A stretch of DNA of 32,000 nt from Candidatus Hermodarchaeota archaeon (GCA_048886185.1 JBHLKY010000001.1:284046-316045), one strand, 5' to 3'. Shown: positions 1,640 through 29,877, counted from the first letter of the stretch. The notes: generated by a model from the letters alone, not told the origin. Program-made: numbers and translations.

Positions 1640-4600
1640 TTACTTTTTTCTTCGAAGCCAAACCAATAATAGACTTAACGATAGGATAGAGAAAATTAAT
1701 TCAAATCCGGATGCTCCAATTTCTGGGCCTTCTTTACTCTCAGGGGTTGTTGCAGTGGTTTCTTCAATGTTATTAATTTCAAAGAGATCTGATTGTAAGC
1801 TGGTAGTATCTGTTCCATCAGAGATTTCGATAATGATTCTATATCCAGTATCATCAGGATAAGCCGTACTGTCGAAAGAATATGTTGTATCAGTAGTGCC
1901 TGATTTTAATGTAATTTTTGTTCCATCTGGCTTAACAAGGATAATGGTAGATGTAAGAATATCTCCATCAGGATCACTGGCAGTCCAAGTAATGATTTCT
2001 GTACCACTGATAACATTATCTATATTTTCAAGTGTTCCTTCTGGAGCTCTATTCCCTATCTGAACTTTCACTCTAATGATCAATGGTGTTGTTTCATCAC
2101 CTATTAATCCAATGACAAATGTGCGAACTCCCGCTGTGAGGCCCGACGGATTGTAGTGGAAAGTGAACGTCTTTTGATCAACTTCTGCCCAATTTGTGAA
2201 TGATTGGGATTGTTCAACAAATGCCTCAGTCCATGCGAAAATTCTTCCAGAGGGAACAGTTCCAATGCCTATGTTGGTTAACCTGACGATAATATCAAAT
2301 TCTTCGTTTAAATCGACGTATGTTGGGGCGTTTATATCGTCAAATTCGACTGCATGTGTGAATGTTTCATATCCCTCGAATGAGAAGTGAATATCTATCC
2401 CAGATATTGTCGTTAACACCATTTTGTACCTTAGAACTTGAGGGTAATTATTTGGATAACTGTAATCAATGATATGAGTTTTGTAGCTAATAATATGGCC
2501 TGATTCTGTAAGAGCTCTTACACGTAAGACCATAACTTGTGGTTTTGAGATTCCAGCATCTCCTGCAACGGGGAAGACATCAATGAAATATTCTCCTTTA
2601 ATAGGTGAGTGAATTGTTAGATTTTGTGAATCCGGTATGAGTCCTGAATAGGTAGTTCCAGGATATGCCTCTTCAAAGCCTGTTGTATAGTTGTAACCAA
2701 CACTCATAGTTGAATTCCATAGGTAGATTGCAGAACCATCCACTGATTCCAAGGTAACTTCAAGCGAGTCCATTGGAATGTGTCCATAATAAACCTGCTG
2801 TGCAAGAATAGCTTGTACTGTCGCAAACACTGGAGGTTCTCCTCCCATGGTATTTTCCCAATAGGCTCTGGTGGAAGTCACATATATCATGTGAGTATTG
2901 AGATACTCTGTTATACTGTCATACCACCACTGATCACTATCACGTCCTGCCATAAGGAACGCTTTGCTTGCTGAAAGATACCAATAGTATTCAAATGAAC
3001 GACCTGAATGTGGATTTCCACCAACAATCTGTCCAGAATTGTTAATCCAATCGAGGGCGGATAATATGTCAGGATCGTTTGGTTCAGATCCACTGAGATA
3101 TAATCCCCAGATTCCTGCCGCTGTCATTGATCCATAGCTACTACTGCCCCAATCACGCCAATCTTCAGTACTCGGAGTGTAGGTAAAGCCACCATCGTAT
3201 CTCCAAATTCCTTCCTCGTCATATCCTCCTCTACAGCGCCTAACAAAAATATCGACTTTATCCCAAAGATTAGGATCAAATGGATCCAATCCCCCAGGAT
3301 TGAAGTTTTCATAGGTTGATAGTGTGAGGATTGCCCACTGACTTACAGAAAGATCAGACGATTGGTGATCGTCTCCATATCGCCAACCACCGTACCAGGG
3401 ATCACTTAGATCTACGCTCCACGTTTCGTCATTTTGTGTATAGACCAACCATGCAATAGCATCATCAATAAGTGAATCTAGAGCAGAATCGTACCCAGGG
3501 AGGGTCGCATTGTAAGCGAGTAAAGTAGTAGTTGCCATAGCAGTCTCATAAGTACTATGATAGATTGACCTACCATCATCTTGATCAAAGCTAAAAGTAT
3601 TTTGCAGGTATCCAATTGCATCTTCAACAACCTGATCATAAGCCAAACCTGCTTGGATGAAGCAGAGAGCAGCAAGAGCTGCCATTCCTGGTCTACCATA
3701 TTCTTGCCCAGGTTGATAATCCCATGATCCATCGGGATTTTGTTGAGTTCGTAACCAAGCTAATCCTTTGGTGATGGTACTTTCTGGTGAGGGAATCGTA
3801 CCAGGGTCGATAGTGATTGAAATGGTGGTTTCCGAGGTCTTATAGGTCATATCATACGCTCTTATGGTTATTTCAATATTTCCTATGAGATCATGTGAAG
3901 GGAACCAAGTAAACCTAAAATCAGGCCCAGAGGCTGGTTCACCCCAATTCCATTCATAAGGATTGTAAGTAAATAAAACCTCTTGACCAGAAAGAATCTG
4001 ATAGTATAATATAGCAGATTCATCAATGCTTGTTCCAGTGATAGAGATTCCATAGTATTGCCCAAAATGTGCTCCATTTGTAGGTGTGGTAATGCTTACA
4101 CTAGGTGGGGATGTATCTTCTGTTATATCTACTCTCACAGTAAGATCCTGAGTGGCAGTTGGGGGCTGATCGTAATCTGCATGGAGTACTTGAAAGAGCC
4201 ATGGACTTGTGTATTTACCAATCTGTATCAAGTAATGATCCGTATTGATATTCCCCATCCATTCCTCCCATCGAATAATATCTCGATCCCAAATGCTGCG
4301 AAGGCGTCCAAAACCATCTAGATACCATATATCGAAATCGGGTAATCCCACATCTACCGGTTCAGTTCGCTCTACCTGTAAGTGAAGAACATCATTAAAG
4401 TATTGTGGAACTATACCAAACAATTCAGAATCATTAACTGCGAGAGTCCCAAAATTATATTCATCACCAGGCCCTAGAACTTGTATTGGGGAAATAGAGC
4501 TAATATCTATTGCAGTCGAGTAAGGAGCGACTGCATATGACATATTACAAGGGCTAAAAGGTTCATGATGATATAGTTCAACAATTGCTACTTCTTCAAA

Positions 4601-5503
4601 GTATATTGTTGGATTTGTGTCACCATAAAAATCGAAAGCTCTAAGTATCCCTCTTGAGATTGTCAGCTTTATTTCATTTAGACTATTTGATTGTAACCAG
4701 AATGTTTGTTCCCAATGTCCTATTGTCTCTCCAGTACTATTTCGTAATACTAATCGGATATAGTACGGTTCATCATTATTCATCCAATGAAAGAAACTTT
4801 GAAATGTAATATTTACTTCTAAATAGTCCGATGTGAGAGTTGCATCATGCATTATGAACGATCCAATCTCCATTGGTTCATCAAAAGTATAAATGTCAAA
4901 TATTTGAGGAATTAATAATAGAGGGTTCTCATCGGGATTGTAGGACCAATTTTCATCAAAGATTTCATAGTTATATTGAGTGCTTCCATTCGCTAATTGA
5001 ACGTGAGAAATCCGATATGGGCCAGCTAGTTTCAATGCTCTTAGTTGTGTGCAGTTGAAATGAACTGTAATATTGTGAATACCATTTGATAATGTCTGAA
5101 AATTGCTTTTTCCCCAGAAAAAATAACCTCCATCATAGTATCGGTCATTAGTATATGGATCGGTGAATCTGCGTTGAAAAGTTTGATCATAGAGTGCTGC
5201 CATAACAATATAATCCGTTACGTATGTCGATGTAATTTCTACCTCAACATTGATCATTAATATGTCAAAATCACCGTCAGGCTCAATATCATTAAGCCCA
5301 TTATAGAAAATTCTTCCTGTTAGATGTCCTCGGGGATCATCTTGCATTATCTTAGTAGCAACAGTTGGAGAAGATGTCTGTATTCTTTGATCTTTATTTG
5401 CAAAGTTCGAAGATATATTTGTCAAATTTGTAGGTGACATTCCGAGAGAAAAAGCACCAACCAAAAAGATTGCTATCAATATAATGAAATTTCTTTTTAT
5501 CAT
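1640..5503 (-). CDS. Large secreted/cell-surface multidomain protein: signal peptide, beta-sandwich/Ig-like domains, prenyltransferase/squalene-cyclase-like (alpha/alpha) repeat barrel, CARDB/Ig-like domains, C-terminal PGF-CTERM-like anchor
   Basis: N-terminal MIKRNF plus hydrophobic stretch; QW-like repeats WLRTQQNPDGSW and WLVYTQNDETW...GGW; DGGFTY, YGSMTAAG; Ig-like DTSPPSVSITTPTNG and NRAPEGTL; Thr-rich linker then SGFELIFSILSLSLLLVWLRRKK. Confidence 0.85.
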   Translation of the reverse strand: MIKRNFIILIAIFLVGAFSLGMSPTNLTNISSNFANKDQRIQTSSPTVATKIMQDDPRGHLTGRIFYNGLNDIEPDGDFDILMINVEVEITSTYVTDYIVMAALYDQTFQRRFTDPYTNDRYYDGGYFFWGKSNFQTLSNGIHNITVHFNCTQLRALKLAGPYRISHVQLANGSTQYNYEIFDENWSYNPDENPLLLIPQIFDIYTFDEPMEIGSFIMHDATLTSDYLEVNITFQSFFHWMNNDEPYYIRLVLRNSTGETIGHWEQTFWLQSNSLNEIKLTISRGILRAFDFYGDTNPTIYFEEVAIVELYHHEPFSPCNMSYAVAPYSTAIDISSISPIQVLGPGDEYNFGTLAVNDSELFGIVPQYFNDVLHLQVERTEPVDVGLPDFDIWYLDGFGRLRSIWDRDIIRWEEWMGNINTDHYLIQIGKYTSPWLFQVLHADYDQPPTATQDLTVRVDITEDTSPPSVSITTPTNGAHFGQYYGISITGTSIDESAILYYQILSGQEVLFTYNPYEWNWGEPASGPDFRFTWFPSHDLIGNIEITIRAYDMTYKTSETTISITIDPGTIPSPESTITKGLAWLRTQQNPDGSWDYQPGQEYGRPGMAALAALCFIQAGLAYDQVVEDAIGYLQNTFSFDQDDGRSIYHSTYETAMATTTLLAYNATLPGYDSALDSLIDDAIAWLVYTQNDETWSVDLSDPWYGGWRYGDDHQSSDLSVSQWAILTLSTYENFNPGGLDPFDPNLWDKVDIFVRRCRGGYDEEGIWRYDGGFTYTPSTEDWRDWGSSSYGSMTAAGIWGLYLSGSEPNDPDILSALDWINNSGQIVGGNPHSGRSFEYYWYLSASKAFLMAGRDSDQWWYDSITEYLNTHMIYVTSTRAYWENTMGGEPPVFATVQAILAQQVYYGHIPMDSLEVTLESVDGSAIYLWNSTMSVGYNYTTGFEEAYPGTTYSGLIPDSQNLTIHSPIKGEYFIDVFPVAGDAGISKPQVMVLRVRALTESGHIISYKTHIIDYSYPNNYPQVLRYKMVLTTISGIDIHFSFEGYETFTHAVEFDDINAPTYVDLNEEFDIIVRLTNIGIGTVPSGRIFAWTEAFVEQSQSFTNWAEVDQKTFTFHYNPSGLTAGVRTFVIGLIGDETTPLIIRVKVQIGNRAPEGTLENIDNVISGTEIITWTASDPDGDILTSTIILVKPDGTKITLKSGTTDTTYSFDSTAYPDDTGYRIIIEISDGTDTTSLQSDLFEINNIEETTATTPESKEGPEIGASGFELIFSILSLSLLLVWLRRKK

Positions 5504-5932: not shown

Positions 5933-6934
5933 ATGTTTAGAAAGAAAAAGCCCTCTGAGATCGAGTTATTAGAACAGAAATTTTCTGAGAAGACAGATAA
6001 AATCGAAACACGAATAAATAATATGACCCAAGAATTAGCGGAAAGAATTGCAGCAATTGAGAAACATTTAGAGGGATCTGCAGTTCGGCAAAGTGAACTA
6101 TCTCAGACATTCGAGAATAGGAGTGTTGAAATTCGAACTCAGGCAACTAAAGAGTTTAAAACATCACTTGAGGAAGTTAGAAGTTCATTGGAGACCTTAG
6201 GATTAGAACTTAACAATCAAGTTCTCGACTTAAGTACAAGACTTGAACAACTTGATCAGAACTCGAGTAATTGGTCATTTGCTATTAATGAGCAGATTGA
6301 AGAGTTTCGACAAAATTACGTAAATGTCTTAGAAGAACTTCGTCAAGGTAGAAATATCGCGGTTGAAAAAGAGCGGCTTATGAGTCAAAAATATGAAGAA
6401 TTAGTTAATCAGTTGAAGGAAAAAGAAAAACTAGCAATTGAAAAGGAAGCATTAGCTCAGCAGCGGATTGGTTCTTTACAAGACGAAGTACAGAAAAAAG
6501 AAAAAGAAGTAGAAAAAACCACTTCACAGCTCGAACAGCTAGAATCTGAACTAAAAGCTAAAAATGGATTTATTGATGAATTACGAGAAAGAAAAATTAA
6601 AGCTGAAGAGCTGAAACTCGAACTCAAGCGTTTGAGTGAAGAAAATGAATTGAAGACCTATGAACTTGAGAGAGCTAAAAGCCAAATGACAACCATGTCG
6701 GATGATACCAGACGTTCTCTGGGTACAACAAAGGCAATAAAAACTTTTTTGAGCGAAAGTGAGTCGGGGAGAGTCTTAAGTCATCTGATGGGTGTGGAAC
6801 AAGCCTCAGTGGATGATCTAGCAACAATGACGGGGATTGCAACTTACACTGTTCAACAAATTCTTCAACACTTCCAAGATATGGGCATCATTACATTAGA
6901 TAAAACTACAAGACGAGCAAAGCTAAAAGAATAG
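5933..6934 (+). CDS. Long coiled-coil protein with C-terminal winged helix-turn-helix domain
   Basis: About 260 aa of E/K/Q/L-rich heptads, then SGRVLSHLMGVEQASVDDLATMTGIATYTVQQILQHFQDMGIITLD, a typical wHTH pattern. Confidence 0.8.
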   Translation: MFRKKKPSEIELLEQKFSEKTDKIETRINNMTQELAERIAAIEKHLEGSAVRQSELSQTFENRSVEIRTQATKEFKTSLEEVRSSLETLGLELNNQVLDLSTRLEQLDQNSSNWSFAINEQIEEFRQNYVNVLEELRQGRNIAVEKERLMSQKYEELVNQLKEKEKLAIEKEALAQQRIGSLQDEVQKKEKEVEKTTSQLEQLESELKAKNGFIDELRERKIKAEELKLELKRLSEENELKTYELERAKSQMTTMSDDTRRSLGTTKAIKTFLSESESGRVLSHLMGVEQASVDDLATMTGIATYTVQQILQHFQDMGIITLDKTTRRAKLKE

Positions 6935-6980
6935 ACAATTAAAGTCTTACGCTATTTGAATTGAGATAAAGGGGATTTTT

Positions 6981-7523
6981 ATGGAAGTAAAGATTGGATC
7001 AACCATTATACGTTTGGTTCTAGGGGATATTACTCAAGAAAACACTGACATCATTGTAAATGCGGCAAACACTTCACTCAGAGGAGGTGGGGGTGTTGAT
7101 GGAGCTATTCATCGTGCTGGGGGTTCTGAGATCCTGCAGGAATGTGTCGAGAAGTATCCTGAGGGATGTGAAACGGGGGAAGCTCGAATAACTACAGCGG
7201 GACAGTTAAATGCTAAATTTGTAATCCATACACCTGGTCCGATTTGGAAAGGTGGGAGACAAAACGAGGATGATCTTCTAGCAAGTTGTTATCGTAATTC
7301 TCTCCATCTCGCCATAGAATATGATGCTAAAACAATTGCATTTCCGTCTATTTCAACTGGAGTGTATAGGTTTCCGATTGATAGGGCATCAAAAATAGCA
7401 CTTTTAACCGTTATTGAAAATCTAGTGTCGACTTCTATAATAGAAGTTCACTTTGTCTTATTTAGTGATTCAGACCTTCAAATCTACGAGAAAAATCTTC
7501 TAGAGATAATTAATAACAGATAA
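6981..7523 (+). CDS. Macrodomain protein (O-acetyl-ADP-ribose deacetylase / ADP-ribosyl hydrolase, YmdB/MacroD-like)
   Basis: [45 protein letters not shown] motifs. Confidence 0.95.
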
Positions 7524-7567: not shown

Positions 7568-8317
7568 TTAAGAGTTACGTGGTTTTTTTGCTTTTATCCT
7601 AAATTTAGGGATTTTTTCTTCATATGTTGGTGGTGGTTTTTGCCTTGATGGTGTTTTTATTTTAATTTTTTTAGGAATAAGTCTGTTTATTCCCTTAGAT
7701 TCCTTTTTCTTTTCTGCTCCTCTTGATGTGGGAATAGTCATATTTATTATTGCTGCTGAAGGTTTTTTATCACTAACTCTGGGAACAGGTTTGTTAACGA
7801 AATTAGATTTCTTTTTTGAAGAGCTTCCTAAGGAATGAGGTATTTTAATTTCCTTATTCGGATGCTTAGGAATTGGAGCAGGTTGATTTGAAACCAATTT
7901 TTTTCGATTTCTTTTCGAAAGCGCCCCAAGACTAGTTGGTGGAGCATGAGATCTTTCTTGTTGTGAAGAAGACTTTGGAGGAGTTTTAGAATTAACTGTG
8001 TTTTGATCCTTCTCTTTTATTGGAGATTTAACTGGTTTGAGAGAAGTTTCGCCCTTAATTTGATCTGATAATGGAGGTGGAACATTATAATAAGGAGTAT
8101 CATCTTTTGATGGTTCAATTGTTCCATGTCTGGAAGGTAGTGAGTTTGATGACTTTGGTATGTTTACTTTCAACTTTTGTTTTGGTGGAGGAAGTTCAAA
8201 TACTTCTTCTGCCCCGTTTGGAAATTTAGATTTAATTATTGAACTTTTAGAATTCGTGGGGATCTTCTGTTTAATTTCCTTACTAGGCTTTTTCTCACGG
8301 ATTTTCCATCTTACCAA
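7568..8317 (-). CDS. Lys/Pro/Ser-rich, highly basic, probably intrinsically disordered protein
   Basis: 249-aa open frame, TTG start with upstream AGGA; composition dominated by K, P and S, no hydrophobic core; same strand as, and downstream of, the Ubl cluster. Confidence 0.7.
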   Translation of the reverse strand: MVRWKIREKKPSKEIKQKIPTNSKSSIIKSKFPNGAEEVFELPPPKQKLKVNIPKSSNSLPSRHGTIEPSKDDTPYYNVPPPLSDQIKGETSLKPVKSPIKEKDQNTVNSKTPPKSSSQQERSHAPPTSLGALSKRNRKKLVSNQPAPIPKHPNKEIKIPHSLGSSSKKKSNFVNKPVPRVSDKKPSAAIINMTIPTSRGAEKKKESKGINRLIPKKIKIKTPSRQKPPPTYEEKIPKFRIKAKKPRNS

Positions 8318-8424: not shown

Positions 8425-9009
8425 CTATTTTCCAAATAAAAATCCAATTCCAGAAAAGAGGAAAAATAAACCATATAGGATCCCTATTAAATCAGTAGTT
8501 ATTAGCCCTGCAGTTAAGAAAAGTGCACCAAATACAAAAAAAGTTATTAGAGCAGTCCATTCTGCTGAGGGCCCTTTCTCAGATTGCGAAGTAATTCTAA
8601 TGAATTGATATCGAGTGAAACTACGTAATAACAGGGCGGATGATACTGCTAAATACGGAAATGCTAATATTGAGGATACAGTAATTTGAAGTTGAGTGAA
8701 TTCATTTACAGGTAGAATTTCAACGTTAAAAGTTAACAATGGTTCTTCATTAAGAGGGAAGAACGAACTTGTAAGTATAACCAATAAGGGAATGATATTC
8801 GCTAATGAAAAAAAGTAAATCTCATTCAAGGTTGCTTTTACATCAATATAATATAGAATTCTTAGAAAATAAAATATAGTTATGGTTGCATATAGAGTCA
8901 GGTAGAGAATATTCATAGCATTACTGTCTTCATCACGTATGAAGAAAAAAATACTAGCTGATATTCCCATAAGGAAGACAAAAAATGCCATGGAATGACG
9001 TGAAGCCAT
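8425..9009 (-). CDS. About 6-TM integral membrane protein; apparent paralog of the membrane domain of the adjacent RING protein
   Basis: Six hydrophobic segments; starts 4 bp after the RING gene stop; by-eye alignment with the RING protein TM1-TM4. Confidence 0.8.
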   Translation of the reverse strand: MASRHSMAFFVFLMGISASIFFFIRDEDSNAMNILYLTLYATITIFYFLRILYYIDVKATLNEIYFFSLANIIPLLVILTSSFFPLNEEPLLTFNVEILPVNEFTQLQITVSSILAFPYLAVSSALLLRSFTRYQFIRITSQSEKGPSAEWTALITFFVFGALFLTAGLITTDLIGILYGLFFLFSGIGFLFGK

Positions 9010-9013
9010 CTTT

Positions 9014-10168
9014 TTAGCCCCATCGGTTATTTAGAAGATTTTCCTGAAACATTTTAATTAATTTCTCGTAATTCTTCCCAGAAAGACGATACATCTTTTT
9101 TGTTGAGATAGGTTTATTACATCGGGAACAAATATCTGCAACACTAAGCCATTTTTCTAACTCAAGCGAATGAGCTGGATGACCACAATGAGGACAGATG
9201 ACTACTTTCTTATCTGGTTCAGTGGGAAATCCATAACAAAAAATACATCGAAAGTCATCATGAGATAAATGTTGGCCAGAGGGAATAAGCTTAGTAATGA
9301 TAGCTGGATTTAGTCTGTCGATACGAGTAACTGTTCTCCCTGTTTGTATTCCTGGAGCTACTGTAACAGAGTTGATACTTTCGGATCGTGGTGTTCTAGA
9401 CATTTGGGGTACTGATCTTGGTTGTAATAGGCTTGCTTGATTCGTTCTTGGTTGGCTATTTGCATTGCGAGGACTAACTGAGGATGTTCTATTAACAATA
9501 AAAGATCTCCCTAATGTTTGTTGAGGTAAACGATTAACAGTCACACGACGGATTGGAACAAGAACAACCTTAAGTATATAATATTGGATCAGAAAAATAA
9601 TACTAACACTAACAAAACATAATCCACTAAATTCAATAATCCTAGTTTGGATCCAAAAAAAAGCTAAACTTAAAATTATACAGAGATTATACAGAATGAC
9701 AATTTTGTTGGGAACCTTCCTTCTAAAGATAAAAATTGATGGATACCTGTTTGAATAATACTTTTGGAGGAGAAATAGGAGAAATATAAAGAATGGTAAC
9801 ACAAAAATAATACTAAATATGTTTAGAAAAACAAAATAATTTCCACCATTAATAAACTCAATGTCGAGAGAGATTTCGAAGAAAGATGATCGTAGAAAAT
9901 CATTTTCTCCTAAAGACGCTGTATGAGCTATCAATGTTCCCCCATATGCGATTAACGACGGGATTCCAATAAAGATTCCCGAGGCAATTGGAGCATTATA
10001 ATGCTGGAAATATCGCCATTCCTCAAGAAATTTTAAAATCAAAATTGCAGTTAAAGTAATATAAGCAATTGTAAGAGCAGTTTCTATTGGTTGATCAGTG
10101 AGTAATGTTAATAGCGTAAAAACAAACCCGACGACACAGATAGAAAGATATACATTACGCCCGACCAA
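9014..10168 (-). CDS. Membrane-anchored RING-H2-like putative E3 ligase (about 6 TM, disordered linker, C-terminal RING variant)
   Basis: TTG start with GAGGT upstream; TM segments within aa 5-204; C308-x2-C311...C325PHC328GH330PAH333SLE336LEKW340...C347-x2-C350; operon position after JAB/E2/E1. Confidence 0.85.
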   Translation of the reverse strand: MVGRNVYLSICVVGFVFTLLTLLTDQPIETALTIAYITLTAILILKFLEEWRYFQHYNAPIASGIFIGIPSLIAYGGTLIAHTASLGENDFLRSSFFEISLDIEFINGGNYFVFLNIFSIIFVLPFFIFLLFLLQKYYSNRYPSIFIFRRKVPNKIVILYNLCIILSLAFFWIQTRIIEFSGLCFVSVSIIFLIQYYILKVVLVPIRRVTVNRLPQQTLGRSFIVNRTSSVSPRNANSQPRTNQASLLQPRSVPQMSRTPRSESINSVTVAPGIQTGRTVTRIDRLNPAIITKLIPSGQHLSHDDFRCIFCYGFPTEPDKKVVICPHCGHPAHSLELEKWLSVADICSRCNKPISTKKMYRLSGKNYEKLIKMFQENLLNNRWG

Positions 10169-10186: not shown

Positions 10187-11107
10187 TTAATTCTCATGAT
10201 CATATTCTAAAAACATACTACCATTTTTCTCTGCTAGTGGAAGAAGGGTATTCATCATCTCAGGAAGGCTCTCTAGAGGGCAATTAAGGACTTGGTAGGG
10301 TGGTTCTTCCCAGGTTTGCAAATCCTCTTTTAAACGGAATATTTTAAAGCCATATGAACGTTTAGATATTTTTGTTGGATCAATAACTAAAGCAATAGGT
10401 GCTGTTAACTGGGAGTCTTTCGTCCTTCCAAGTTTTTGGTAGCGAACTTGAGTCTCAAAATCGGTTTGACTCATGAATACTCCATATGATGGGTGACTAT
10501 GATACCAACCAAGAATAAGCTGATCATGGGTTTTCATTTTTATTTCATTATACACTCTGACCATGGATTGAGGATCTTGGATTTGTGCATTTACCTCAGT
10601 GCCATGACCAATTGGATAGGCATCCTCGACATTTAAACATGCTAATGGAGTATCTTTTTGTTCAATTTGTCCCGTTAAAAGCCCGATTACCTCAATCCAT
10701 TTACTTTGGGGTGTATTCGGATTTGCGTACTTTAAAGCATGTAAAGCAAGCTTTATGTAAGCTTTAAGATGAATTTTAACACGAGAAGGCTTCGAGTCGG
10801 GATCTAGGTCATCAAGATTTAAGTCAACAGATTCTGTGTTTTCTTCTCGATTTTGATTCATATTATGATTTTCATCCTTATTGAGATTCTCTGATCCGTT
10901 GGTAAAAAGCTTCTCTGTTTTTGTTTTTAATTGGGAAGGTTTAAACTGTATTTGCTTACTTAATGGATTCCAAGTATAATTATCAGGCGGGAGAGTAATG
11001 AAAGGAAATTTTAACGTAAATGATAAAGTTTGAGGGTCAAATGTTAATGAAAGATCCCGTAGTAGTAATTCGAAAACATTTTTGGGAATTTTATTATTAT
11101 TAGGCAT
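10187..11107 (-). CDS. JAB1/MPN+ (JAMM) metalloprotease, Rpn11/CSN5-like deubiquitylase or Ubl maturase, with about 110-aa N-terminal extension
   Basis: RVKIHLKAYIKLALHA...EVIGLLTG and LGWYHSHPSYGVFMSQTD (E...HxHx7Sx2D intact), IALVIDP. Confidence 0.93.
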   Translation of the reverse strand: MPNNNKIPKNVFELLLRDLSLTFDPQTLSFTLKFPFITLPPDNYTWNPLSKQIQFKPSQLKTKTEKLFTNGSENLNKDENHNMNQNREENTESVDLNLDDLDPDSKPSRVKIHLKAYIKLALHALKYANPNTPQSKWIEVIGLLTGQIEQKDTPLACLNVEDAYPIGHGTEVNAQIQDPQSMVRVYNEIKMKTHDQLILGWYHSHPSYGVFMSQTDFETQVRYQKLGRTKDSQLTAPIALVIDPTKISKRSYGFKIFRLKEDLQTWEEPPYQVLNCPLESLPEMMNTLLPLAEKNGSMFLEYDHEN

Positions 11108-11136: not shown

Positions 11137-11664
11137 TTACCATTTTTCAGAAGCATATTTCTTAGTAATTTTATGGGCTTTTTTCAAGAAATTCTTGCGA
11201 TCACTAAGATATTCTTGAGCTGCTTTCTTATTGAAAACATCATGAGGATTAGTATACGCTGTGTCAATGTTGAACATTGCTAAAATCGAATAAATTATTG
11301 TACTAATGTTTTTTGAAGGAGACCAACCGTCTGGTCTTCCCACAAGGTCGGGGTCAACAAGAGCTAGGCATATATTCCGTTTTCCTTGATATTCGTCAGG
11401 TTTTGGCCAGAAATTTGGATGCCAAATTGGAGTATGTAATCGGACAAAAGGGGGGGAATATGGGTAGTTTGATCCAAACTTAATTTCTAGTTTGAATTTG
11501 CCCTTTTCATAAGGGGTTCCTTTCGGTCCCTCAAGAAGAATTGCTAAGTGTTCTACGCTTTTTTTTCCGCCTGGAAAGGCCTTTAGCTGCTTAATGGTTT
11601 TTTGTTTGTATAATTTTTTTAGTTGTTTATAATCATCAGCGATTCGTTTAAGTCTGATAGACAT
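11137..11664 (-). CDS. Ubiquitin-conjugating enzyme E2 (UBC fold)
   Basis: RLKRIADD, GPKGTPYEKGKF, YPYSPP, HPN (82-84), catalytic C99, WSP, PHDVFNKKAA. Confidence 0.95.
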   Translation of the reverse strand: MSIRLKRIADDYKQLKKLYKQKTIKQLKAFPGGKKSVEHLAILLEGPKGTPYEKGKFKLEIKFGSNYPYSPPFVRLHTPIWHPNFWPKPDEYQGKRNICLALVDPDLVGRPDGWSPSKNISTIIYSILAMFNIDTAYTNPHDVFNKKAAQEYLSDRKNFLKKAHKITKKYASEKW

Positions 11665-11680
11665 TTCTCACACCTTTTTA

Positions 11681-12925
11681 TTACTCAATTTTCAATTTAA
11701 TATAGGATTGAGTGCCATCATCAAACCCCGTGACCAATATAGTCTCATAATCTCGGATTCCAGCTTCAAATATGCTCTGATTTGTATCAATTTCATTAAT
11801 ATCTGAATTATCTATACGAAAAACAATTGGAGGAAATTCTGGATCAATGGTGAGCTTTTTTTCTTCCGCTAATTTATTGATGATCTTTTGAATATTTGCC
11901 TTAGAATTCACTTTTATCCGATAGAGGGGGGAATGGTTATTACCACACATTGTACAATCTGGGTTCTTAGGTTTTTCAATTTCATAGAACTTCCCAGTCA
12001 AACCATTGTATATCACATAATTTAATTGAAGTGTTCCAAGTTTTCTTTTTTCTGGAGGTGTGTGGAGATGATGAAGAATTTTAACTGCTTCTTGTGATTG
12101 TAGAGATGCCATTACACAATTGATGGTGATAACTGTTGGCTCGTGATTATCTATTATTTGGATGATCTGATCAGTCGTAAACGGTTGTGAGCCGGGAAAA
12201 TATTGTTTAAGTAGATGATTCGCATATTCTCTAATGGTGTCAACTTCATCTTGTTTGAGAATGTTCACCGGCCGATTGTAATCCTGTTCAAATTTCAATT
12301 GGCCTTTGAGTATACAATGAGCTGGTCTACGGGGATTACCTACTAAAGTGCAAGCCCCTAGCTGATCTTGTTCTCGTTCTGTTAATGGATCACACTCTAA
12401 ACAAGCATTACTGAATGGCCAGACACAATAAACGTGTCCATTGAATGCTGCTGTACCAGCATCGATCAATGGCTTTCGATTATGAATAGCTCGCCTGTTT
12501 AATTCTGACCTTGCTTCTATTGAATCTAAGCCAGCGATGTAAAGATCAGCTTCATTATATAGATGGGGAGGTAGATCTTGAAGCGCGCAATTATGAGCCT
12601 CTACTTCAATGAAAGGATTCAATTCTTGTAAACGTTTAGCCGCATATTGTGCCTTAGATGTTCCCTCTGTGGCTCCGATGAACAGTACCTGGCGATTCAA
12701 ATTAGAATATTCAATTGTATCAAGATCCACCAGGATTAATCGGCCGACTCCGACCATTGCGAGGTTTTTTGCAACTTCCACACCGAGGCCACCAACGCCA
12801 ACAATAAGAACGGTACTTTTTTTAAGGATCTCTTGTTTCCATCCAGGTAAACGGAGTTGGCGATCAAAGCGACGCTTTTCTTCTTCAGTGAACAGGTTAC
12901 TGGTGAAACTTGATATTTTATTCAT
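11681..12925 (-). CDS. Ubiquitin-like activating enzyme E1 (ThiF adenylation domain, catalytic Cys insert, C-terminal ubiquitin-fold-like domain), UBA3/UBA2-like
   Basis: RFDRQ, VGVGGLG, DLDTIEYSNLNRQ, DAGT..FNG, Zn pairs CLEC and CTMC, ACTLVGNPRRPAHC with putative catalytic C192. Confidence 0.93.
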   Translation of the reverse strand: MNKISSFTSNLFTEEEKRRFDRQLRLPGWKQEILKKSTVLIVGVGGLGVEVAKNLAMVGVGRLILVDLDTIEYSNLNRQVLFIGATEGTSKAQYAAKRLQELNPFIEVEAHNCALQDLPPHLYNEADLYIAGLDSIEARSELNRRAIHNRKPLIDAGTAAFNGHVYCVWPFSNACLECDPLTEREQDQLGACTLVGNPRRPAHCILKGQLKFEQDYNRPVNILKQDEVDTIREYANHLLKQYFPGSQPFTTDQIIQIIDNHEPTVITINCVMASLQSQEAVKILHHLHTPPEKRKLGTLQLNYVIYNGLTGKFYEIEKPKNPDCTMCGNNHSPLYRIKVNSKANIQKIINKLAEEKKLTIDPEFPPIVFRIDNSDINEIDTNQSIFEAGIRDYETILVTGFDDGTQSYIKLKIE

Positions 12926-12938: not shown

Positions 12939-13301
12939 CTAATTTATTGATCCAGCTGTTGAAACTGGGATAATCAAACATTCAAGTCCATCTTCAATAT
13001 CATAATTCGAGAGAACATCATCTGCATCTAAGGTTCTTCCACTTATGGATATATGGAAGTCTTGTGGATCAAGACCGAAGATTCCTCCAAGCGTTTCTTT
13101 TAAATCTGAGACCCCCATCTCAGGATCGATTGTGAGTTTTTCAAGTTTCTCTCCAGGCCCAATTGTGGATCGAAAGAATAAACTAACGCGAGAATCTTTT
13201 GGGATTTTACTTGTAGGCACTTTTGTCGTCACTACAGGAGTTTCTGAGTTCTTCTTTTCTTCTTCAATTTCCAGGTCATCAAAATCTTCATTTTCAGACA
13301 T
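12939..13301 (-). CDS. Ubiquitin-like protein B: acidic N-terminal extension, beta-grasp core, ends STAG-SIN (putative pro-form)
   Basis: Start placed at ATG 13301 (GGAG upstream; MSENEDFDDL parallels Ubl-A). Core FHISISGRTLDADDVLSNYDIEDG aligns without gaps to ubiquitin residues 43-64. Confidence 0.9.
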   Translation of the reverse strand: MSENEDFDDLEIEEEKKNSETPVVTTKVPTSKIPKDSRVSLFFRSTIGPGEKLEKLTIDPEMGVSDLKETLGGIFGLDPQDFHISISGRTLDADDVLSNYDIEDGLECLIIPVSTAGSIN

Positions 13302-13477
13302 TAAGCAATTCTCCATTCTGATTAAAAGCATCCAAATTATCAATTCATCTTCAATATGAAAAACATTGTTTTTTGAATCTTCTTTTGTTTGCAAATAATC
13401 TTCTGAATACGTCAATTTAATTATTCCCTTTTATCTCATAGGTACAAAATTGATGTGATTTGATGATGGAAATTGAT

Positions 13478-13760: not shown

Positions 13761-14108
13761 TCATCCAGCCGTACTGTGAGGGATCAAAAGAATTTCATCG
13801 CCGTTATCGACACCATAATCACCTAAAGGTGCTGACTCATCTAGAGTCCGACCGGCGTGGCTTAGATGAAAATCATCTGGATTTAACCCAAAGATGTTAG
13901 CCAAGGTGTCTCTGACGTCTCTAACAGGAGTGTTTTCTCCTACAGAAATTTTTTCAGTACGTTCAGGCCCAACGGTGGATTTGAAGAAAATATTCTTCTT
14001 AGGACCTGCAGATACTCCTGATACTGGAGTTTTCGATTGGGCGGGAGTTTTGGATTTAATTCTGGTTTTTTCTTCTAAATCAAAGTCCAAATCTTCAAAA
14101 TCTGACAT
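13761..14108 (-). CDS. Ubiquitin-like protein A: acidic N-terminal extension, beta-grasp core, mature C-terminus STAG
   Basis: AGGTGA ribosome-binding site before the ATG; FHLSHAGRTLDESAPLGDYGV matches ubiquitin [20 protein letters not shown]; ends GDEILLIPHSTAG*. Confidence 0.92.
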   Translation of the reverse strand: MSDFEDLDFDLEEKTRIKSKTPAQSKTPVSGVSAGPKKNIFFKSTVGPERTEKISVGENTPVRDVRDTLANIFGLNPDDFHLSHAGRTLDESAPLGDYGVDNGDEILLIPHSTAG

Positions 14109-16796: not shown

Positions 16797-17831
16797 TTAG
16801 TTACTGTTTAAATAAAGGTGACATGCAACAAAATGTCCATTCCCTACTTCAAGAAGCTCTGGTTCTTTTTTCGGACAAGAATCGACTGCTTTTGCACATC
16901 TTGTATGGAATCGGCAACCACTTGGGATGTTAACTGGACTGGGAACCTCCCCTTTTAAAATAAAACGCTCTTTCTTTTGAGTTGGGTCTGGAATGGGAAT
17001 CGAAGAGAAAAGAGCTTCAGAGTATGGATGGAGAGGTTTCTTATAGAGATGTTCAGTAGGCGCTAGTTCAACAACCTTTCCAAGATACATGACACCTACT
17101 CTAGTGCTTATGCATTCAACAACACGAAGATCATGACTAATGAACAAATAAGTTAAATCCATGTCTTTCTGGAGTTCCACGAAAAGATCAAGAAGTTGAG
17201 CCCTTACTGATACATCGACAGAAGAAGTTGGTTCATCTAGCAGTACAAAATCAGGTTTTGTTACCAAAGCTCGTGCTATCGCTATTCTTTGCCTTTGTCC
17301 CCCACTGAATTCATGAGGATAGCGATAAAGATGAACCTCCCCAAGGCCTACTTTTTGAAGTATTGACAAAGTTCTTACTCGAAGCTCAGCTCCTTTAGCT
17401 AATCCCTGAACCTTAAGGGGTTCCCCAACTACGTTCTTAATAAGCATTCTTGGATTGAGTGAAGATGAAGGGTCTTGGTACACTATCTGCATTCTTCTTC
17501 GTAAATATTTCAACTTTTTTCCCTTATATGTTGAAAGATCGTGTTGGGACCTGATCTTTTGAAGCTGGGAGTTATTAACTTCAGAAATCGGGTCAGTTTC
17601 TGGTAGATCAAAATATATATGTCCTGATGTTGGCTCATAAAGTCTTAAAACAGTTTTTCCAAATGTGGTCTTACCACAACCCGATTCACCGACTAATCCA
17701 AAGCACTCACCCTTTCTTATACTTAGACTTACTCCATCGACAGCTTTAACATCTCCCATTTTCTTCCTAAAAACACCTCCAGTCACATGGAAGTATTTTT
17801 TTAGGTTCTCGGTTTGAAGTAGGATTTTCAA
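16797..17831 (-). CDS. oppF: Oligopeptide/dipeptide ABC transporter ATP-binding subunit (OppF/DppF-like)
   Basis: GESGCGKT, FSGGQRQR, LLDEPT, C-terminal NIPSGCRFHTRC...ACH. A TTG at 17831 overlaps the oppD TGA and has GGAG upstream; ORF track start is 17867. Confidence 0.95.
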   Translation of the reverse strand: MKILLQTENLKKYFHVTGGVFRKKMGDVKAVDGVSLSIRKGECFGLVGESGCGKTTFGKTVLRLYEPTSGHIYFDLPETDPISEVNNSQLQKIRSQHDLSTYKGKKLKYLRRRMQIVYQDPSSSLNPRMLIKNVVGEPLKVQGLAKGAELRVRTLSILQKVGLGEVHLYRYPHEFSGGQRQRIAIARALVTKPDFVLLDEPTSSVDVSVRAQLLDLFVELQKDMDLTYLFISHDLRVVECISTRVGVMYLGKVVELAPTEHLYKKPLHPYSEALFSSIPIPDPTQKKERFILKGEVPSPVNIPSGCRFHTRCAKAVDSCPKKEPELLEVGNGHFVACHLYLNSN

Positions 17832-19024
17832 TTCAAATTCTCCTTCTGATTGGAATAAAGATGACATGAAACTACATGTTCCTTAAAGACCACAGTAGTA
17901 GGAATCTCTTCAGAACACTTTGGACTTGCATTGGAACATCTCGGATGAAATCGACAACCCGATGGAGGTGTGATCAGGTTTGGTACTATTCCTTTGATAG
18001 ATTTGAAATCCTCTCCAGGTTTCGGAATTGATTCGAGTAATGCTTTTGTATATGGGTGGAGCGGATTTTTAAAAAGTTCGAAGACATCTGTGATTTCTAC
18101 AACGTTTCCAGCATACATAACACAGACTCGATCACACATTTCAGCCACTACACCCATATCATGGGTTATATAGATGATAGAAGAATTAAATTTCCTTTTT
18201 AGTTCTCTGATAAGCTGAAGTATCTGAGCTTCGATGGTTACATCCAAATTGGTTGTTGGTTCATCACAGATCATTATCTTTGGGTTACACACGAGACCCA
18301 TTGCAATTACAACCCTTTGTTGCATCCCTCCACTGAGTTCATGGGGGTACATCTTAATAATCCGCTCTGGGTCTGGTATTTTCATTTCTTTAAGGATTGA
18401 AATAATCTCTTTTCTAATCTCCAGCCTCAATTTATTATGAAATCTCCAAATAAGGGGTATTTTAGAAAGGATTCTTAATCGTACAGAATTGTGATTTTTA
18501 AGCATAATTCTGTATGTCATCCTCTGAAATCTATAAATGGCCATCTTAAACCTTTGTTGTAAACGAATGATTTTTGCCTCTGACGATAGTTTTTCTATAT
18601 CTTTTTCTATGGTTTCCAAAGTATTTCTAATGAATTCAGCTTTTCGATGGTGGATTATCACTTCTGCAATTTGTTCTTCAACAGTGAAAAGGGGATTTAG
18701 GGCTGAACGTGGTTCCTGAAATATCATTGAGATATCCTTCCCCCTAATGGTTCTTAGAGTAGCCTCATTATGACTCAATATGTCTTGAGTTCCACGTTCA
18801 TTCTTAAATAATATTCTCCCACTGATTATTTTTCCAGGAGAAGGTGTTAAGACGAGTGTTGAGAACCCAGTCATAGATTTTCCACATCCTGTTTCCCCTA
18901 CAATCCCTAAAGTTTCTCCTACTTTCATAGATAAATTAACTTTCTCCAGAGCTTTTACAACACCCTCATATGTGTAAAATCTTAGTACAAGATCTTGGAT
19001 TTCCAGAATATTTTGGTTTTGCAT
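17828..19024 (-). CDS. oppD: Oligopeptide/dipeptide ABC transporter ATP-binding subunit (OppD/DppD-like) with about 70-aa insertion
   Basis: GETGCGKS, ELSGGMQQR, CDEPT, THDMGVV, PPSGCRFHPRC. Confidence 0.95.
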   Translation of the reverse strand: MQNQNILEIQDLVLRFYTYEGVVKALEKVNLSMKVGETLGIVGETGCGKSMTGFSTLVLTPSPGKIISGRILFKNERGTQDILSHNEATLRTIRGKDISMIFQEPRSALNPLFTVEEQIAEVIIHHRKAEFIRNTLETIEKDIEKLSSEAKIIRLQQRFKMAIYRFQRMTYRIMLKNHNSVRLRILSKIPLIWRFHNKLRLEIRKEIISILKEMKIPDPERIIKMYPHELSGGMQQRVVIAMGLVCNPKIMICDEPTTNLDVTIEAQILQLIRELKRKFNSSIIYITHDMGVVAEMCDRVCVMYAGNVVEITDVFELFKNPLHPYTKALLESIPKPGEDFKSIKGIVPNLITPPSGCRFHPRCSNASPKCSEEIPTTVVFKEHVVSCHLYSNQKENLN

Positions 19025-19152
19025 TCGTTATGCCTCAATAGTGAACATAAGATCTCATTCAATAGTCATCCGTTTTTTGAAAAAGAATCTTTCTCAAAGA
19101 TGCAGTTCAAACTTAGTGTTACTCTTTATTTCTTTAAATTATTTATAATAAG

Positions 19153-19189
19153 CTGTTCTTAATCTAAATCCTTATCGGGATTAGAACAG
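19153..19189. promoter_or_regulatory. Imperfect 11-bp inverted repeat in the oppD/oppA divergent region
   Basis: CTGTTCT(T)AATC-(14 nt)-GATTAGAACAG with one bulged base. Confidence 0.35.
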
Positions 19190-19270
19190 TCTCTTAATCA
19201 CCCTAAACATTTTTAAGTATCGACTTCGTCTATAAATCGCTTCTTTTAAGGAAAAAAGGAGTACTGAAAA

Positions 19271-21133
19271 ATGAAACAATTGAGTAGAATTAAGATAATC
19301 GTCTTTTTCTTCCTCATTCTGATGATAACAAATCTTGTATCAATAGCAGTTGGAAGAACAGACGAAGATACGCTAGTTACCACAAATTATGGGTATGCAG
19401 ATCAATTAGATCCTGCTTTCGCTTATAATGGTGGTATAATTCAAATGATGCATGTCTATGAGACACTAGTATCCTTTGATAAAGAAAAAGTGGATGAATT
19501 TATTCCTGTCCTTGCCACTACGGTTCCAACAACAGCTAATGGGGGAATTAGTGCTGATGGTTTGACTTATACATTTACCATCCGCGAAGACGTCAAATTC
19601 TCGAATGGTAATGATTTGACCCCTGAAGATGTGGAATATTCCTTTGAGAGAATGTTGGTTGCAGATCCCGATCAGGGACCAATATGGATGCTTTACCAAC
19701 CCTTTTTAGATGACTATGGTAGTAGAGATTGGGAAACAGGAGAAATTTATTATAATGCAACAGATTTACAGGATATTGTTGAAGTTGATGGTAATGATGT
19801 TATCTTTAATCTCGCAAAACCGTTTCCATCATTCTTACAAGTACTATCATTAAGTACAGGCCTTATTATTGACAAAGAGTGGGCCATAACCAAGGGTTGT
19901 TGGGATGGAGATTGGAATACTTGGAAAGACTACAATAATCCTGAAGAAGCCCCGTTAGTGGACACAATGATGGGAACAGGCCCATATAAGCTTGATAAAT
20001 TAACACCTGGTCCTGGTGGAGAAGTAATAGTTGTTGAAAACGAAGATTATTGGGGTACAGCACCAAAACTTAAGAGAATACACTGGAAGTTTATTGACGA
20101 ATGGAGTACAAGGAAACTTTCTTTCCTCCAAGGTGATATTGATATCCTAGGTCCAGAAGATCCAGCACATGTAGAACAACTTAGAGGTGAAGAAGGTGTT
20201 ACTATCATCGAGGGATTAAATGCCACAACAACAGTCTGTATGATTTTTAATTTTAATATCGCTCCAGATAGCGAATATACTGGAAGTGGTTTGCTTGATG
20301 GTGATGGAATACCAATCGACTTTTTCAATGACACAGATGTAAGGTTAGGATTCGCTTATGCCTTCCCCTATGAGACTCTTATCAACGATACAATGCTTGG
20401 GCAAGCAATACAGCTAGTTGCTGGTATACCTAATAATATTCCTTACTTCAATCCAGACCAAGAGGGATTTTCATATGATAAAACAAAAGCAACACAACAC
20501 TTTCAACAGGCTTGGGATGGTGAAGTGTGGGAAAATGGATTCACATTTCAGATTCCATACGACACTGAGGATGACATTGCCCTTGCCTCAATCGATATGC
20601 TTGCAGAAAGTTTAGAAGATATCAATTCCAAATTTGTGGTCGAGAAGATAGGTCTTGGACCTAATAAATATTATGCAATGGTCGATGAAGATTATCCCTG
20701 TCCTGTACCAATACGACCTGACGGTTGGTGGTGGCCAGACTTCGCGGATCCCGACAACTTTTACGCTGGAGCATATTTGGGTGACTGGGGCTATTATTCT
20801 TGGAATATGTTTGTTAGTACTTCAGAGATTGAAGATTTAATCGCGACTGGATCAGGAACTCTTGATAAGACAGTGCGGAGAAATACTTACTATGAACTCC
20901 AAGAACTATATGTTGATGAAGCCTTGGGTATTCCCCTCTTTCAAGTAGTTGATAATTACGTGATGCGGGATTATGTAGAAGGATATTACTATAGGCCCCT
21001 TTGGCAAGACGTAAACTTCTTCTGGTACTTCGATAAGGATTATGGAGGCCAGGTTCCTGGATTTGCTTTGTTAACTGGATTATCAGTGTTTGTTGTTCTC
21101 ATCTTAGCCAAGAAATCTCGAAAACTAAAATAG
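19271..21133 (+). CDS. oppA: ABC transporter substrate-binding protein, family 5 (peptide/nickel), with PGF-CTERM anchor
   Basis: Signal peptide; LDPA, YETLV, PVLAT, YTFTIREDVKFSNG..LTPEDV.YS, GTGPYKL; C-terminus VPGFALLTGLSVFVVLILAKKSRKLK. Confidence 0.95.
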   Translation: MKQLSRIKIIVFFFLILMITNLVSIAVGRTDEDTLVTTNYGYADQLDPAFAYNGGIIQMMHVYETLVSFDKEKVDEFIPVLATTVPTTANGGISADGLTYTFTIREDVKFSNGNDLTPEDVEYSFERMLVADPDQGPIWMLYQPFLDDYGSRDWETGEIYYNATDLQDIVEVDGNDVIFNLAKPFPSFLQVLSLSTGLIIDKEWAITKGCWDGDWNTWKDYNNPEEAPLVDTMMGTGPYKLDKLTPGPGGEVIVVENEDYWGTAPKLKRIHWKFIDEWSTRKLSFLQGDIDILGPEDPAHVEQLRGEEGVTIIEGLNATTTVCMIFNFNIAPDSEYTGSGLLDGDGIPIDFFNDTDVRLGFAYAFPYETLINDTMLGQAIQLVAGIPNNIPYFNPDQEGFSYDKTKATQHFQQAWDGEVWENGFTFQIPYDTEDDIALASIDMLAESLEDINSKFVVEKIGLGPNKYYAMVDEDYPCPVPIRPDGWWWPDFADPDNFYAGAYLGDWGYYSWNMFVSTSEIEDLIATGSGTLDKTVRRNTYYELQELYVDEALGIPLFQVVDNYVMRDYVEGYYYRPLWQDVNFFWYFDKDYGGQVPGFALLTGLSVFVVLILAKKSRKLK

Positions 21134-21185
21134 TCCAACGGAGCTTCTATCCTCTTTCTCCCCCTTTTTTTATTTTATATTTCTT
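21134..21185 (+). terminator. Pyrimidine/oligo-T terminator-like tract after oppA
   Basis: TCCTCTTTCTCCCCCTTTTTTTATTTT shortly after the stop. Confidence 0.55.
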
Positions 21186-21362
21186 CTAAATGTGAGAACT
21201 AGAATTTGGGTGTGTAAATGGATCCCACTACAAGAAGGATGAAGAATTCAGAACAGAAGAATAGACAGAAGGATATATAATAAAATAAAATAACCTATCA
21301 CTAGATTTTTAATCGATTCCATATGATCAGAAAAATAACAATCTAAATAGGAGAACTTTTGT

Positions 21363-22394
21363 TTGCGGATGAGATCATATATAATTCGACGGATTCTGCT
21401 TGTCATTCCAGTTTTATTCGGAGTCACTTTAGTAATTTTTTCAATTTCGATGTCTTTCGGTCCTGACCAAAGAGCACTTTTGTATGCAAAGAGTCCAAAG
21501 GCACGGAGAAATCTACCAGCGATAATTGAAAAGTATGGCTTGAATGATCCTGCTTATGTTCAATACTTTAGCTGGTTATCACAAATTCTTCATGGTGATC
21601 TGGGGTGGTGTGAAAGATATGGTATGCTTGTAACAGAATCAATATTGATGTTTCTTCCTGGTACAATAGAGCTTGTTCTCTTTTCTGCTCCTTTTATTTT
21701 CATTGTTGGAACACGATTAGGTGTGAGGTCTGCAGTGAATCGGAACTCTTTAACAGATTATCTTATCAGATTCTTTTCTATTATTGGTTGGTCTCTCCCT
21801 ACTTTTTGGTCCGCAATTCTGTTATTGGCTATATTCTATGGTTTTCTCGGATGGTTTCCTCCAGGAAGATTGGGATTAAACGCTCAATACGTGGTAGAAT
21901 CTTCAAACTTCCATAGGTATACTCACCTTAATACAATTGATGCTTTACTAAATGGAAACCTTTTTGTGTTTGTAGATGCGTTACGCCATCTTGTTTTACC
22001 TGTTGTAAACTTGGTAATAGTAAGCTCAGCTTTGATAGTATTAGTAATGCGTTCAAGCATGCTTGAGGCTCTAGGTAAGAGTTACGTTATTACAGCGAGA
22101 GCTAAGGGGTTAAGTGAGAAAGAAGTTATTCATAAACATACTAAAAAGAATGCCATTATTCCTGTTATCACCATCTCGGGATTAATGTTTGCAGGAATGA
22201 TAACTGGATTAGTTGCCACAGAAGTGGTTTTCTACTACCAAGGTCTTGGTTATTGGGCTGCTGATGTTACGCTTCATCTTGATGTACCTTCAATACTGGG
22301 TTTCGGCCTTTTTGTAGCTGTCATATTTGTCATAGCAAATCTAATTGTTGATGTGTTATATGCCTACATAGATCCCAGAGTTCGATATGATTAG
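21363..22394 (+). CDS. oppB: Peptide ABC transporter permease (OppB/DppB)
   Basis: YIIRRILL, GLNDP..VQYF.WL..IL.GDLG, TARAKGL EAA loop, VIANLIVDVLYAYIDPRVR. Confidence 0.95.
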   Translation: MRMRSYIIRRILLVIPVLFGVTLVIFSISMSFGPDQRALLYAKSPKARRNLPAIIEKYGLNDPAYVQYFSWLSQILHGDLGWCERYGMLVTESILMFLPGTIELVLFSAPFIFIVGTRLGVRSAVNRNSLTDYLIRFFSIIGWSLPTFWSAILLLAIFYGFLGWFPPGRLGLNAQYVVESSNFHRYTHLNTIDALLNGNLFVFVDALRHLVLPVVNLVIVSSALIVLVMRSSMLEALGKSYVITARAKGLSEKEVIHKHTKKNAIIPVITISGLMFAGMITGLVATEVVFYYQGLGYWAADVTLHLDVPSILGFGLFVAVIFVIANLIVDVLYAYIDPRVRYD

Positions 22395-22408
22395 TGTGAG
22401 GTGATTTC

Positions 22409-23338: not shown

Positions 23339-23444
23339 AATTATTGAGTCTCCCCACAAAGGAATCAACACTTTTTAGCCAAATATAGCAGTTGAAAGTC
23401 AAACCATGTTAATTGGATTATTGAAAACTCATAAGGATAAATAG

Positions 23445-24689: not shown

Positions 24690-24777
24690 TCTGGAGAAGA
24701 ATTGTTAATTTATTTGTCAATCAATAAATTGGACTAACTAATTCCCTGAAACAAGATATTAATTAGTTTCAAAGGAA

Positions 24778-25983: not shown

Positions 25984-26257
25984 TTTCGTGCCTCTAATGT
26001 CATTAGTCGCAATTAATAATGATTTTTCATTACCCTGGTAGTTTTATTTCCTAGTTGAAAGACTAACTTTATTTATTTTAAGAGATTTTTTTAAAAAAGA
26101 ATGAGAAAATAGTATAAACTGATTGAATTGGAACAATTTTCTGATTTATAACTTATTTGATATAAAATAGCGTTTAATTAACATTGTTAAAAGAAATTAG
26201 TGAATTCTTTAAAAGATCAGTTAATTATTATATCTAAAACAAGATTATTCGGAAAGA

Positions 26258-27073: not shown

Positions 27074-27183
27074 AAACAGTTTGCTTTAGAATTATCTATT
27101 GAAAGATATTTTTTTGTAGCTCTAAATAAATAATCATATATTATTGATATTCTCAAAGAAAATTATGAAAACGGTGGATCTTA

Positions 27184-29745: not shown

Positions 29746-29877
29746 AAGACTAATCTTGGATTATCACTAAAAATCATCTATTAATATTGGAAAGTAGTAG
29801 TGAGTATTAGGAATCTTTTTTGTCATTTTTAATTCTTTTAAAGAAAAAAATTTAAGATGAAAATATTATGAGGTGTT

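Follow-up and report, generated by a model that had tools for sequence, protein, structure and literature searches.

According to PMC5654768, as cited in PMC9192718, Caldiarchaeum subterraneum possesses a ubiquitin operon comprising E1 (activating enzyme), E2 (conjugating enzyme), RING and Rpn11 genes, and a cascade of E1, E2 and a RING E3 (ligase) has been reported from Asgard archaea (bioRxiv 10.1101/2023.07.25.550441). The RING proteins of these cascades are small and soluble, and the Asgard one recognises its target via an N-terminal loop (bioRxiv 10.1101/2023.07.25.550441). The locus considered here lies in a 32,000-nucleotide (nt) stretch of DNA from Candidatus Hermodarchaeota archaeon (GCA_048886185.1 JBHLKY010000001.1:284046-316045; the window) and holds the same gene set in one cluster, namely genes for ubiquitin-like proteins (Ubl), a ThiF-type E1, a UBC E2, a JAB/MPN protease and a RING-type protein. 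Unlike the archaeal and Asgard operons with a soluble RING protein, it encodes a RING-like domain tethered to a six-helix membrane domain, and a RING-less copy follows. The two open reading frames (ORFs) in question are those of the membrane RING protein (P0001, 384 amino acids (aa), TTG start, 9014..10168, minus strand) and of its RING-less paralogue, below called the partner (P0002, 194 aa, the six-helix domain alone, 8425..9009, minus strand). Judging from their sequences, aa 1-203 of P0001 and the whole of P0002 are almost certainly paralogous six-helix membrane domains, and the explanation of the locus that on balance serves best is a putative two-subunit membrane ubiquitin ligase made of the RING-bearing and the RING-less paralogue.

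The membrane ligases of eukaryotes offer several points of comparison. Yeast Hrd1 has eight membrane helices before its RING, and its partners Der1, Hrd3/SEL1L and Usa1 are, to our knowledge, not Hrd1 paralogues; in contrast to Hrd1 and gp78, P0001 has six helices and an outer beta hairpin instead of eight helices, and the putative ligand pattern C4-H-E-C2 instead of C3H2C3. The peroxisomal proteins Pex2, Pex10 and Pex12 form a membrane ubiquitin ligase of paralogous polytopic subunits that assemble via their membrane domains and contribute unequally to catalysis, and all three keep the RING finger. The assembly proposed here would be like theirs in consisting of paralogous polytopic subunits and unlike theirs in that one subunit is without a RING; Pex2, Pex10 and Pex12 were not among the fold matches listed, which does not exclude a relation. 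The MARCH/RING-CH ligases are membrane-anchored, have a C4HC3-like ligand order and tag membrane proteins from the cytosolic side, their N-terminal RING-CH domain being followed by two helices, whereas P0001 begins with its six helices and ends with the RING, the ligand spacing differs and a Glu stands at ligand 6. A literature search, of incomplete coverage and hence leaving novelty unproven, returned no description of an Asgard membrane RING ligase, Hrd1-like protein, polytopic RING protein or RING-less paralogue. RING ligases in membranes and ubiquitin operons in archaea are each known, and their combination on a new membrane domain family looks not to have been described before.

The relation between the two membrane domains emerges only at the level of families, as pairwise methods are too weak for it: BLASTP of P0001 against P0002 gave nothing significant (E 1.5, out of register). 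P0001 has 49 full-length relatives and P0002 has 67, none of them with a Pfam family; in the sources these relatives carry names that put the window among the Asgard archaea, in Hodarchaeales/Heimdallarchaeia, and both proteins are annotated as hypothetical only. Comparison by hhalign of the first alignments, made of close relatives (A2 vs. A1), gave 74% probability and P 2.7e-5. Because hydrophobic proteins often yield false positives, the scores were judged against a null in which alignment columns were permuted within each helix or loop, so that the hydropathy pattern was kept. With the membrane domain only, the local score was 36.9 against 15.0 +/- 3.0 for the shuffles (maximum 27.0, n=150) and the global score 33.9 against 3.35 +/- 1.6, while the reversed-profile control gave background only. 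When the profiles were deepened with distant pairs from other genomes, the probability reached 96.8-98.1% (P 2.4e-10 to 8e-13) over 168-190 columns spanning all six helices, with scores of 70-73 (73.3) against a null of 16.2 +/- 4.0 (maximum 29.7, n=120). Balanced sets (A5 vs. A6) gave 98.3%, P 1.4e-14 and a score of 95.8 over 179 columns. This rise of the signal with added diversity is as expected of true homology, at an identity between the families of 13-20% in the profile alignments. Helices 1-3 carry the strongest signal (95.5%, P 1.4e-8). Controls that set N-terminal against C-terminal halves, within or between families, scored 11-16, and an internal 3+3 repeat was detected in neither family. 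The partner-family hidden Markov model (HMM) matches, end to end, the membrane part of RING proteins that belong to other families, and the RING-family HMM likewise matches partner proteins end to end and collinearly.

An earlier note on this DNA had proposed from a by-eye alignment that the RING protein and its 194-aa neighbour share a six-helix transmembrane domain, and the proposal is borne out by the profile-profile comparison it had called for, which is significant, as well as by the shuffle nulls and the structural models. The alignment itself found no support at the level of single sequences, yet its register was for the most part recovered by the profiles, already in the first hhalign comparison: helix 1 (G14/G15), helix 4 (LPF..RY / FPY..RY) and the hairpin agree, the pairing in helix 3 (IPSLI/IPLLV) reappears in the deep alignment, and only the pairing in helix 2 was misplaced, by four residues relative to the profile alignment. 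Both families share six collinear helices, the hairpin on the outer side, a Pro that is conserved in helices 3 and 4 and the RY motif after helix 4. By these comparisons the two would constitute a single new Heimdallarchaeial six-helix domain family, one without detectable relatives. A search with profile A3 of 1.84 billion representative proteins gave 41 matches, most of them membrane-domain-plus-RING proteins and the rest short fragments, and returned no 194-aa partners and no other family.

The predicted structures agree with this picture. In the AlphaFold2 models, which used the family alignments as input, the mean predicted local distance difference test score (pLDDT) was 81.5 for P0002 and 76.8 for P0001, the membrane part of the latter being mostly at 80-97. 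Hydropathy delineates six hydrophobic segments in each protein, and both models show the same order of elements, that is, three helices, an outer beta hairpin and three helices. In P0001 the membrane domain (aa 1-203; 9560..10168, minus strand), delimited by hydropathy, model, loop charges and homology, comprises helices 2-23, 28-57 and 64-83, the hairpin 95-116 and helices 117-138, 155-175 and 180-202; the corresponding elements of P0002 are helices 2-24, 28-56 and 63-79, the hairpin 92-109 and helices 111-133, 147-171 and 174-192. In both families the basic residues Lys and Arg are concentrated at the N terminus, within loops 2-3 and 4-5 and beyond helix 6, and the acidic residues Asp and Glu in loop 1-2, the hairpin loop and loop 5-6. 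Under the positive-inside rule this charge distribution is consistent with an N-in/C-in topology of both proteins, which would place the RING domain in the cytosol together with E1, E2 and Ubl. Foldseek against PDB and the wide VIA-align search with the partner model found only generic helical hairpins and designed bundles, the ESM Atlas shape search gave template modelling (TM) scores of 0.33 or lower, and the feature and structure searches gave nothing usable.

The most conserved segments of both families are cytosolic loops 2-3 and 4-5, with scores of 0.68 and 0.59 in the RING family and 0.77 and 0.77 in the partner, where the conserved loops after helices 2 and 4 contain KATLNE and RSFTRYxFIR..GPSAE, respectively. 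The outer hairpin loop is poorly conserved, at 0.48 in the RING family, in which it is undercut only by loops 1-2 and 5-6, helix 5 and the residues beyond helix 6, and at 0.39 in the partner, the lowest of all its segments. The mean column identity is 70% in the partner and 63% in the RING protein; the RING-less subunit thus appears to be under tighter constraint than the ligase's own membrane domain.

The membrane domain of P0001 leads into a linker (aa 204 to about 295; 9284..9559, minus strand) in which Ser, Thr, Arg, Pro and Gln abound; it is predicted to be disordered, with pLDDT <50 over aa 204-280, and varies in length among relatives (alignments A2 and A4). The cytosolic domain beyond it (aa 296-384; 9017..9283, minus strand) was assigned by its fold and conserved residues to the RING/U-box class. 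In relatives down to about 22% identity P296, C308, C311, C325, C328, P331, H333, E336, W340, C347, C350 and Y367 are invariant, seven of these being Cys or His (C308, C311, C325, C328, H333, C347 and C350), while H327 and H330 lack conservation across the broad set. The family profile matches the RING-H2 domain of RNF24 (2ep4, E 2.7e-4), and in that alignment the invariant E336 occupies the RNF24 sixth-ligand position and W340 pairs with the RING-H2 Trp. We read this as a putative ligand set C4-H-E-C2, which is unusual beside the eight zinc ligands of a C3HC4 or C3H2C3 pattern. The best 50 Foldseek matches in PDB were all RING or U-box domains (Rad18, RNF4, LubX, CHIP, Prp19, RING1B). The modelled C-terminal domain is of the cross-brace RING/U-box fold, and the earlier assignment of a RING domain to this protein is thereby upheld. 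From the fold and the operon, a role as a RING-type E3 is likely.

The RING and partner genes are the final two genes of a tight minus-strand operon whose other members were recognised by their Pfam families in the order Ubl-Ubl-E1-E2-JAB. Directly upstream of the RING gene stands the gene of the JAB/MPN metalloprotease (306 aa, 10187..11107; Pfam JAB, E 1.8e-15), preceded by those of the E2 of the UBC type (175 aa, 11137..11664; UQ_con, E 3.2e-27), the ThiF/UBA-type E1 (414 aa, 11681..12925; ThiF, E 2.6e-54), Ubl 2 (12939..13415; ubiquitin, E 2.7e-4, under the curated cut-off) and Ubl 1 (115 aa, 13761..14108; ubiquitin, E 1.9e-7, over the cut-off), all on the minus strand. The intergenic gaps from Ubl 2 through the partner are 4-29 nt, and 4 nt separate the RING stop codon from the partner ATG (TAA-aaag-ATG); an AT-rich spacer of 107 nt lies 3' of the partner gene. 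In translation Ubl 1 ends in ...LIPHSTAG-stop and Ubl 2 in ...IIPVSTAG-SIN-stop, so both paralogues have Ala-Gly at the end of STAG and not Gly-Gly. Since Ubl 2 ends in STAG-SIN, the C-terminal SIN presumably needs processing, by the JAB protease of the operon. By comparison with Ubl 1, the true start of Ubl 2 is probably the internal ATG at 13301.

The linkage of the two genes extends well beyond this genome. The neighbourhood is kept in relatives down to about 25% identity, and in a relative at 27% identity the full order Ubl-E1-E2-JAB-RING-partner is found, with a RING protein of 406 aa and a partner of 191 aa. A survey covered 400 Asgard genomes grouped in families, of which f1, f2, f4 and f6 belong to the class of the window and f20 represents another group. 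The partner family occurs in 54 of the 400, all from these four families (18/21 in f1, 2/2 in f2, 24/31 in f4 and 9/12 in f6) and always as one copy per genome. The membrane domain of the RING protein occurs in 63 of the 400 (18/21, 2/2, 23/31 and 7/12 in the same order), weak matches confined to helices 1-3 being found in 12 of the 135 genomes of f20. When the coordinates in the two tables were compared, the two genes were adjacent, on the same strand and with the RING gene upstream in about 42 of the about 50 genomes holding both, and the gaps between them were 4-90 nt in the loci read. In four families the pair is inherited together, mostly as neighbours, and both are members of the Ubl-E1-E2-JAB operon, in line with the earlier suggestion that they belong together.

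A quick maximum-likelihood analysis of the membrane domains places the partner family in one clade on a long branch (Shimodaira-Hasegawa approximate likelihood-ratio test (SH-aLRT) 100), and the partner subtree mirrors the branching of the RING family; the duplication therefore took place before the four families split. Together with the profile comparisons the tree favours the view, advanced at the outset, that an ancient duplication gave rise to RING-bearing and RING-less copies. At f20 long branches meet in the tree, and the duplication may precede or follow the split from f20.

A mechanism may be proposed on this basis. The two membrane domains would assemble as a single hetero-oligomer within the cytoplasmic membrane, since a membrane domain that associates with itself usually becomes a paralogous heteromer once duplicated, and the partner-less form of f20 would represent the homomeric state. 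That the two proteins do form a physical complex seems to us modestly probable. The RING domain, on its disordered tether of about 90 residues, would recruit the Ubl-charged E2 of the operon to the cytosolic face, and the RING-less subunit would provide a scaffold or recognition surface, with the conserved cytosolic loops as the site of docking or recognition. Membrane proteins or membrane-docked proteins would then receive the Ubl tag, and the JAB protease would mature the capped Ubl (STAG-SIN) and may also reverse the tagging. A role in the quality control or turnover of membrane proteins is a tentative and rather doubtful extension of this scheme.

When and how ubiquitylation became coupled to membranes, as in endoplasmic reticulum (ER)-associated degradation (ERAD), endocytic sorting and peroxisomal export, is the question to which the locus offers a concrete and conserved candidate, namely a membrane-embedded RING-type ligase tied to an E1, E2, Ubl and deubiquitinase of its own and accompanied by a RING-less paralogous subunit in the Heimdallarchaeial class including Hodarchaeales, that is, in Asgard archaea close to the ancestors of eukaryotes. 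The passage from a homomer to a paralogous heteromer is thought to be the origin of several eukaryotic ligase complexes. Strains of Hodarchaeales are now cultured (bioRxiv 10.1101/2025.02.26.640444), and the complex, its substrates and a link to Cdc48 and the proteasome or to ESCRT are therefore directly testable.

Several findings weigh against the two-subunit ligase. Helices 4-6 alone align only weakly, yet collinearly, between the families (score 19.2, P 0.005). In the RING-like domain a Glu stands in place of the sixth zinc ligand of RING-H2, and all Pfam RING, PHD and zinc-ribbon models remain under their gathering cut-offs (zf-RING_2, 13.8 vs. 27.3 bits; Prok-RING_1, 15.4 vs. 29.1 bits). 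In four f20 loci (L028-L031, genomes G234, G252, G265 and G182) a Ub-E1-E2-JAB operon ends in a membrane RING protein of 374-398 aa of the same family, and beyond it, on one strand or the other, come unrelated genes, those of GTP cyclohydrolase (FolE2) and of an amidohydrolase, and no partner; at locus L005, as in f20, the membrane RING gene stands in a Ub-E1-E2-JAB operon and a partner is absent from its vicinity. Finally, the RING and partner genes are on different contigs in G013, G018, G045, G053 and G054, and in G052 and G056 the partner gene is convergent, with two unannotated genes between.

These last observations speak for two paralogues that form no complex, the RING protein acting alone or as a homo-oligomer and the 194-aa protein having a separate membrane role or being just a co-transcribed substrate or regulator, for example a RING-less decoy that titrates the ligase. 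The f20 and L005 loci indicate that the ligase can exist without a partner, and the seven genomes with unlinked or convergent genes fit independent roles. We nevertheless regard this alternative as rather unlikely. Within the class, both genes are present or both absent, including the genomes in which they are convergent or on different contigs, which still retain the pair; the genes are adjacent on one strand in most genomes and separated by only 4 nt in this one, and their trees mirror each other. Moreover, a partner more constrained than the membrane domain of the ligase would be unusual for a dispensable passenger gene.

In two genera of f6 with a convergent partner, the genes lying between it and the RING gene encode 127 + 314 aa (L016:1809-3144, plus strand) and 160 + 216 aa (L017:1043-2172, minus strand). 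Pfam gave no match for the two extra genes in G052 and G056, and they may be further components.

A second alternative would make the six-helix pair a prokaryotic relative of the Hrd1-type ligase core, a RING-bearing and RING-less membrane-thinning or retrotranslocation device from which Cdc48 extracts the tagged substrates. The order of a polytopic domain and then a cytosolic RING accords with it, the genome has four Cdc48-type ORFs, and the two independent models each match one and the same region of Hrd1. The model of the RING protein aligns to chains of the Hrd1 complex with values in a band common for helical proteins, beside unrelated chains of equal Z, and we treat this structural alignment as a lead and not as a finding. 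Against the kinship, searches of PDB sequences with profiles A1, A3, A5 and A6 gave no match at E up to 10, hence no detectable sequence relation to Hrd1; there are six helices vs. eight, and those that match are the initial four here and the final four in Hrd1; the conservation of the outer hairpin loop ranks among the lowest; and Cdc48 is general in archaea, as control genomes showed. The Pfam DER1 model had no match in the genome of the window, a search made uninformative by control genomes that were likewise empty. We therefore consider descent from a common ligase core with Hrd1 improbable. If it were true, a membrane-embedded ubiquitin ligase would predate the ER in the archaeal lineage nearest to eukaryotes, and ERAD would have its origin in quality control at the plasma membrane of archaea. 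The four Cdc48-type ATPases of this genome (G000) are full-length ORFs of 733-773 aa with a CDC48_N domain and are found on contigs C6, C8 and C22.

That the neighbourhood arose by chance and the likeness of two hydrophobic proteins reflects shared composition, for which the blank BLASTP result and the low identity between the families might be adduced, is scarcely credible and is refuted as far as sequence statistics can do so, since profile scores stand 7 to 14 standard deviations over shuffles with an unchanged helix pattern, the half-swapped and reversed-profile controls stay at background, the signal grows with diversity and the neighbourhood is conserved among distant relatives.

Around the two-subunit candidate the window contains several further genes. 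Downstream of the partner gene, at a distance of 107 nt, lies a 249-aa ORF (7568-8317, minus strand, TTG start) of low complexity, rich in Lys, Pro and Ser and with no Pfam family, which the distant relative L003 does not conserve at this position. The plus strand at 5933-7523, convergent on the ubiquitin locus, encodes a 333-aa coiled-coil protein that has a MarR-like winged helix at its C terminus and then a 180-aa macro-domain protein (Pfam Macro, E 4e-44). Macro domains are readers or erasers of ADP-ribose, and in eukaryotes ADP-ribose modification cross-talks with ubiquitylation. A 1287-aa ORF (1640-5503, minus strand) has no Pfam family at E up to 1e-4. On the other side of the operon, an Opp/Dpp-type peptide ATP-binding cassette (ABC) transporter with two ATPases, a solute-binding protein and two permeases occupies 16797-23338, and several peptidases (M24, M55, M1) are found within 23445-31413 together with a major facilitator superfamily (MFS) transporter (24778-25983) and an amidohydrolase (29878-31413); the whole region 16797-31413 is an ordinary peptide-scavenging neighbourhood.
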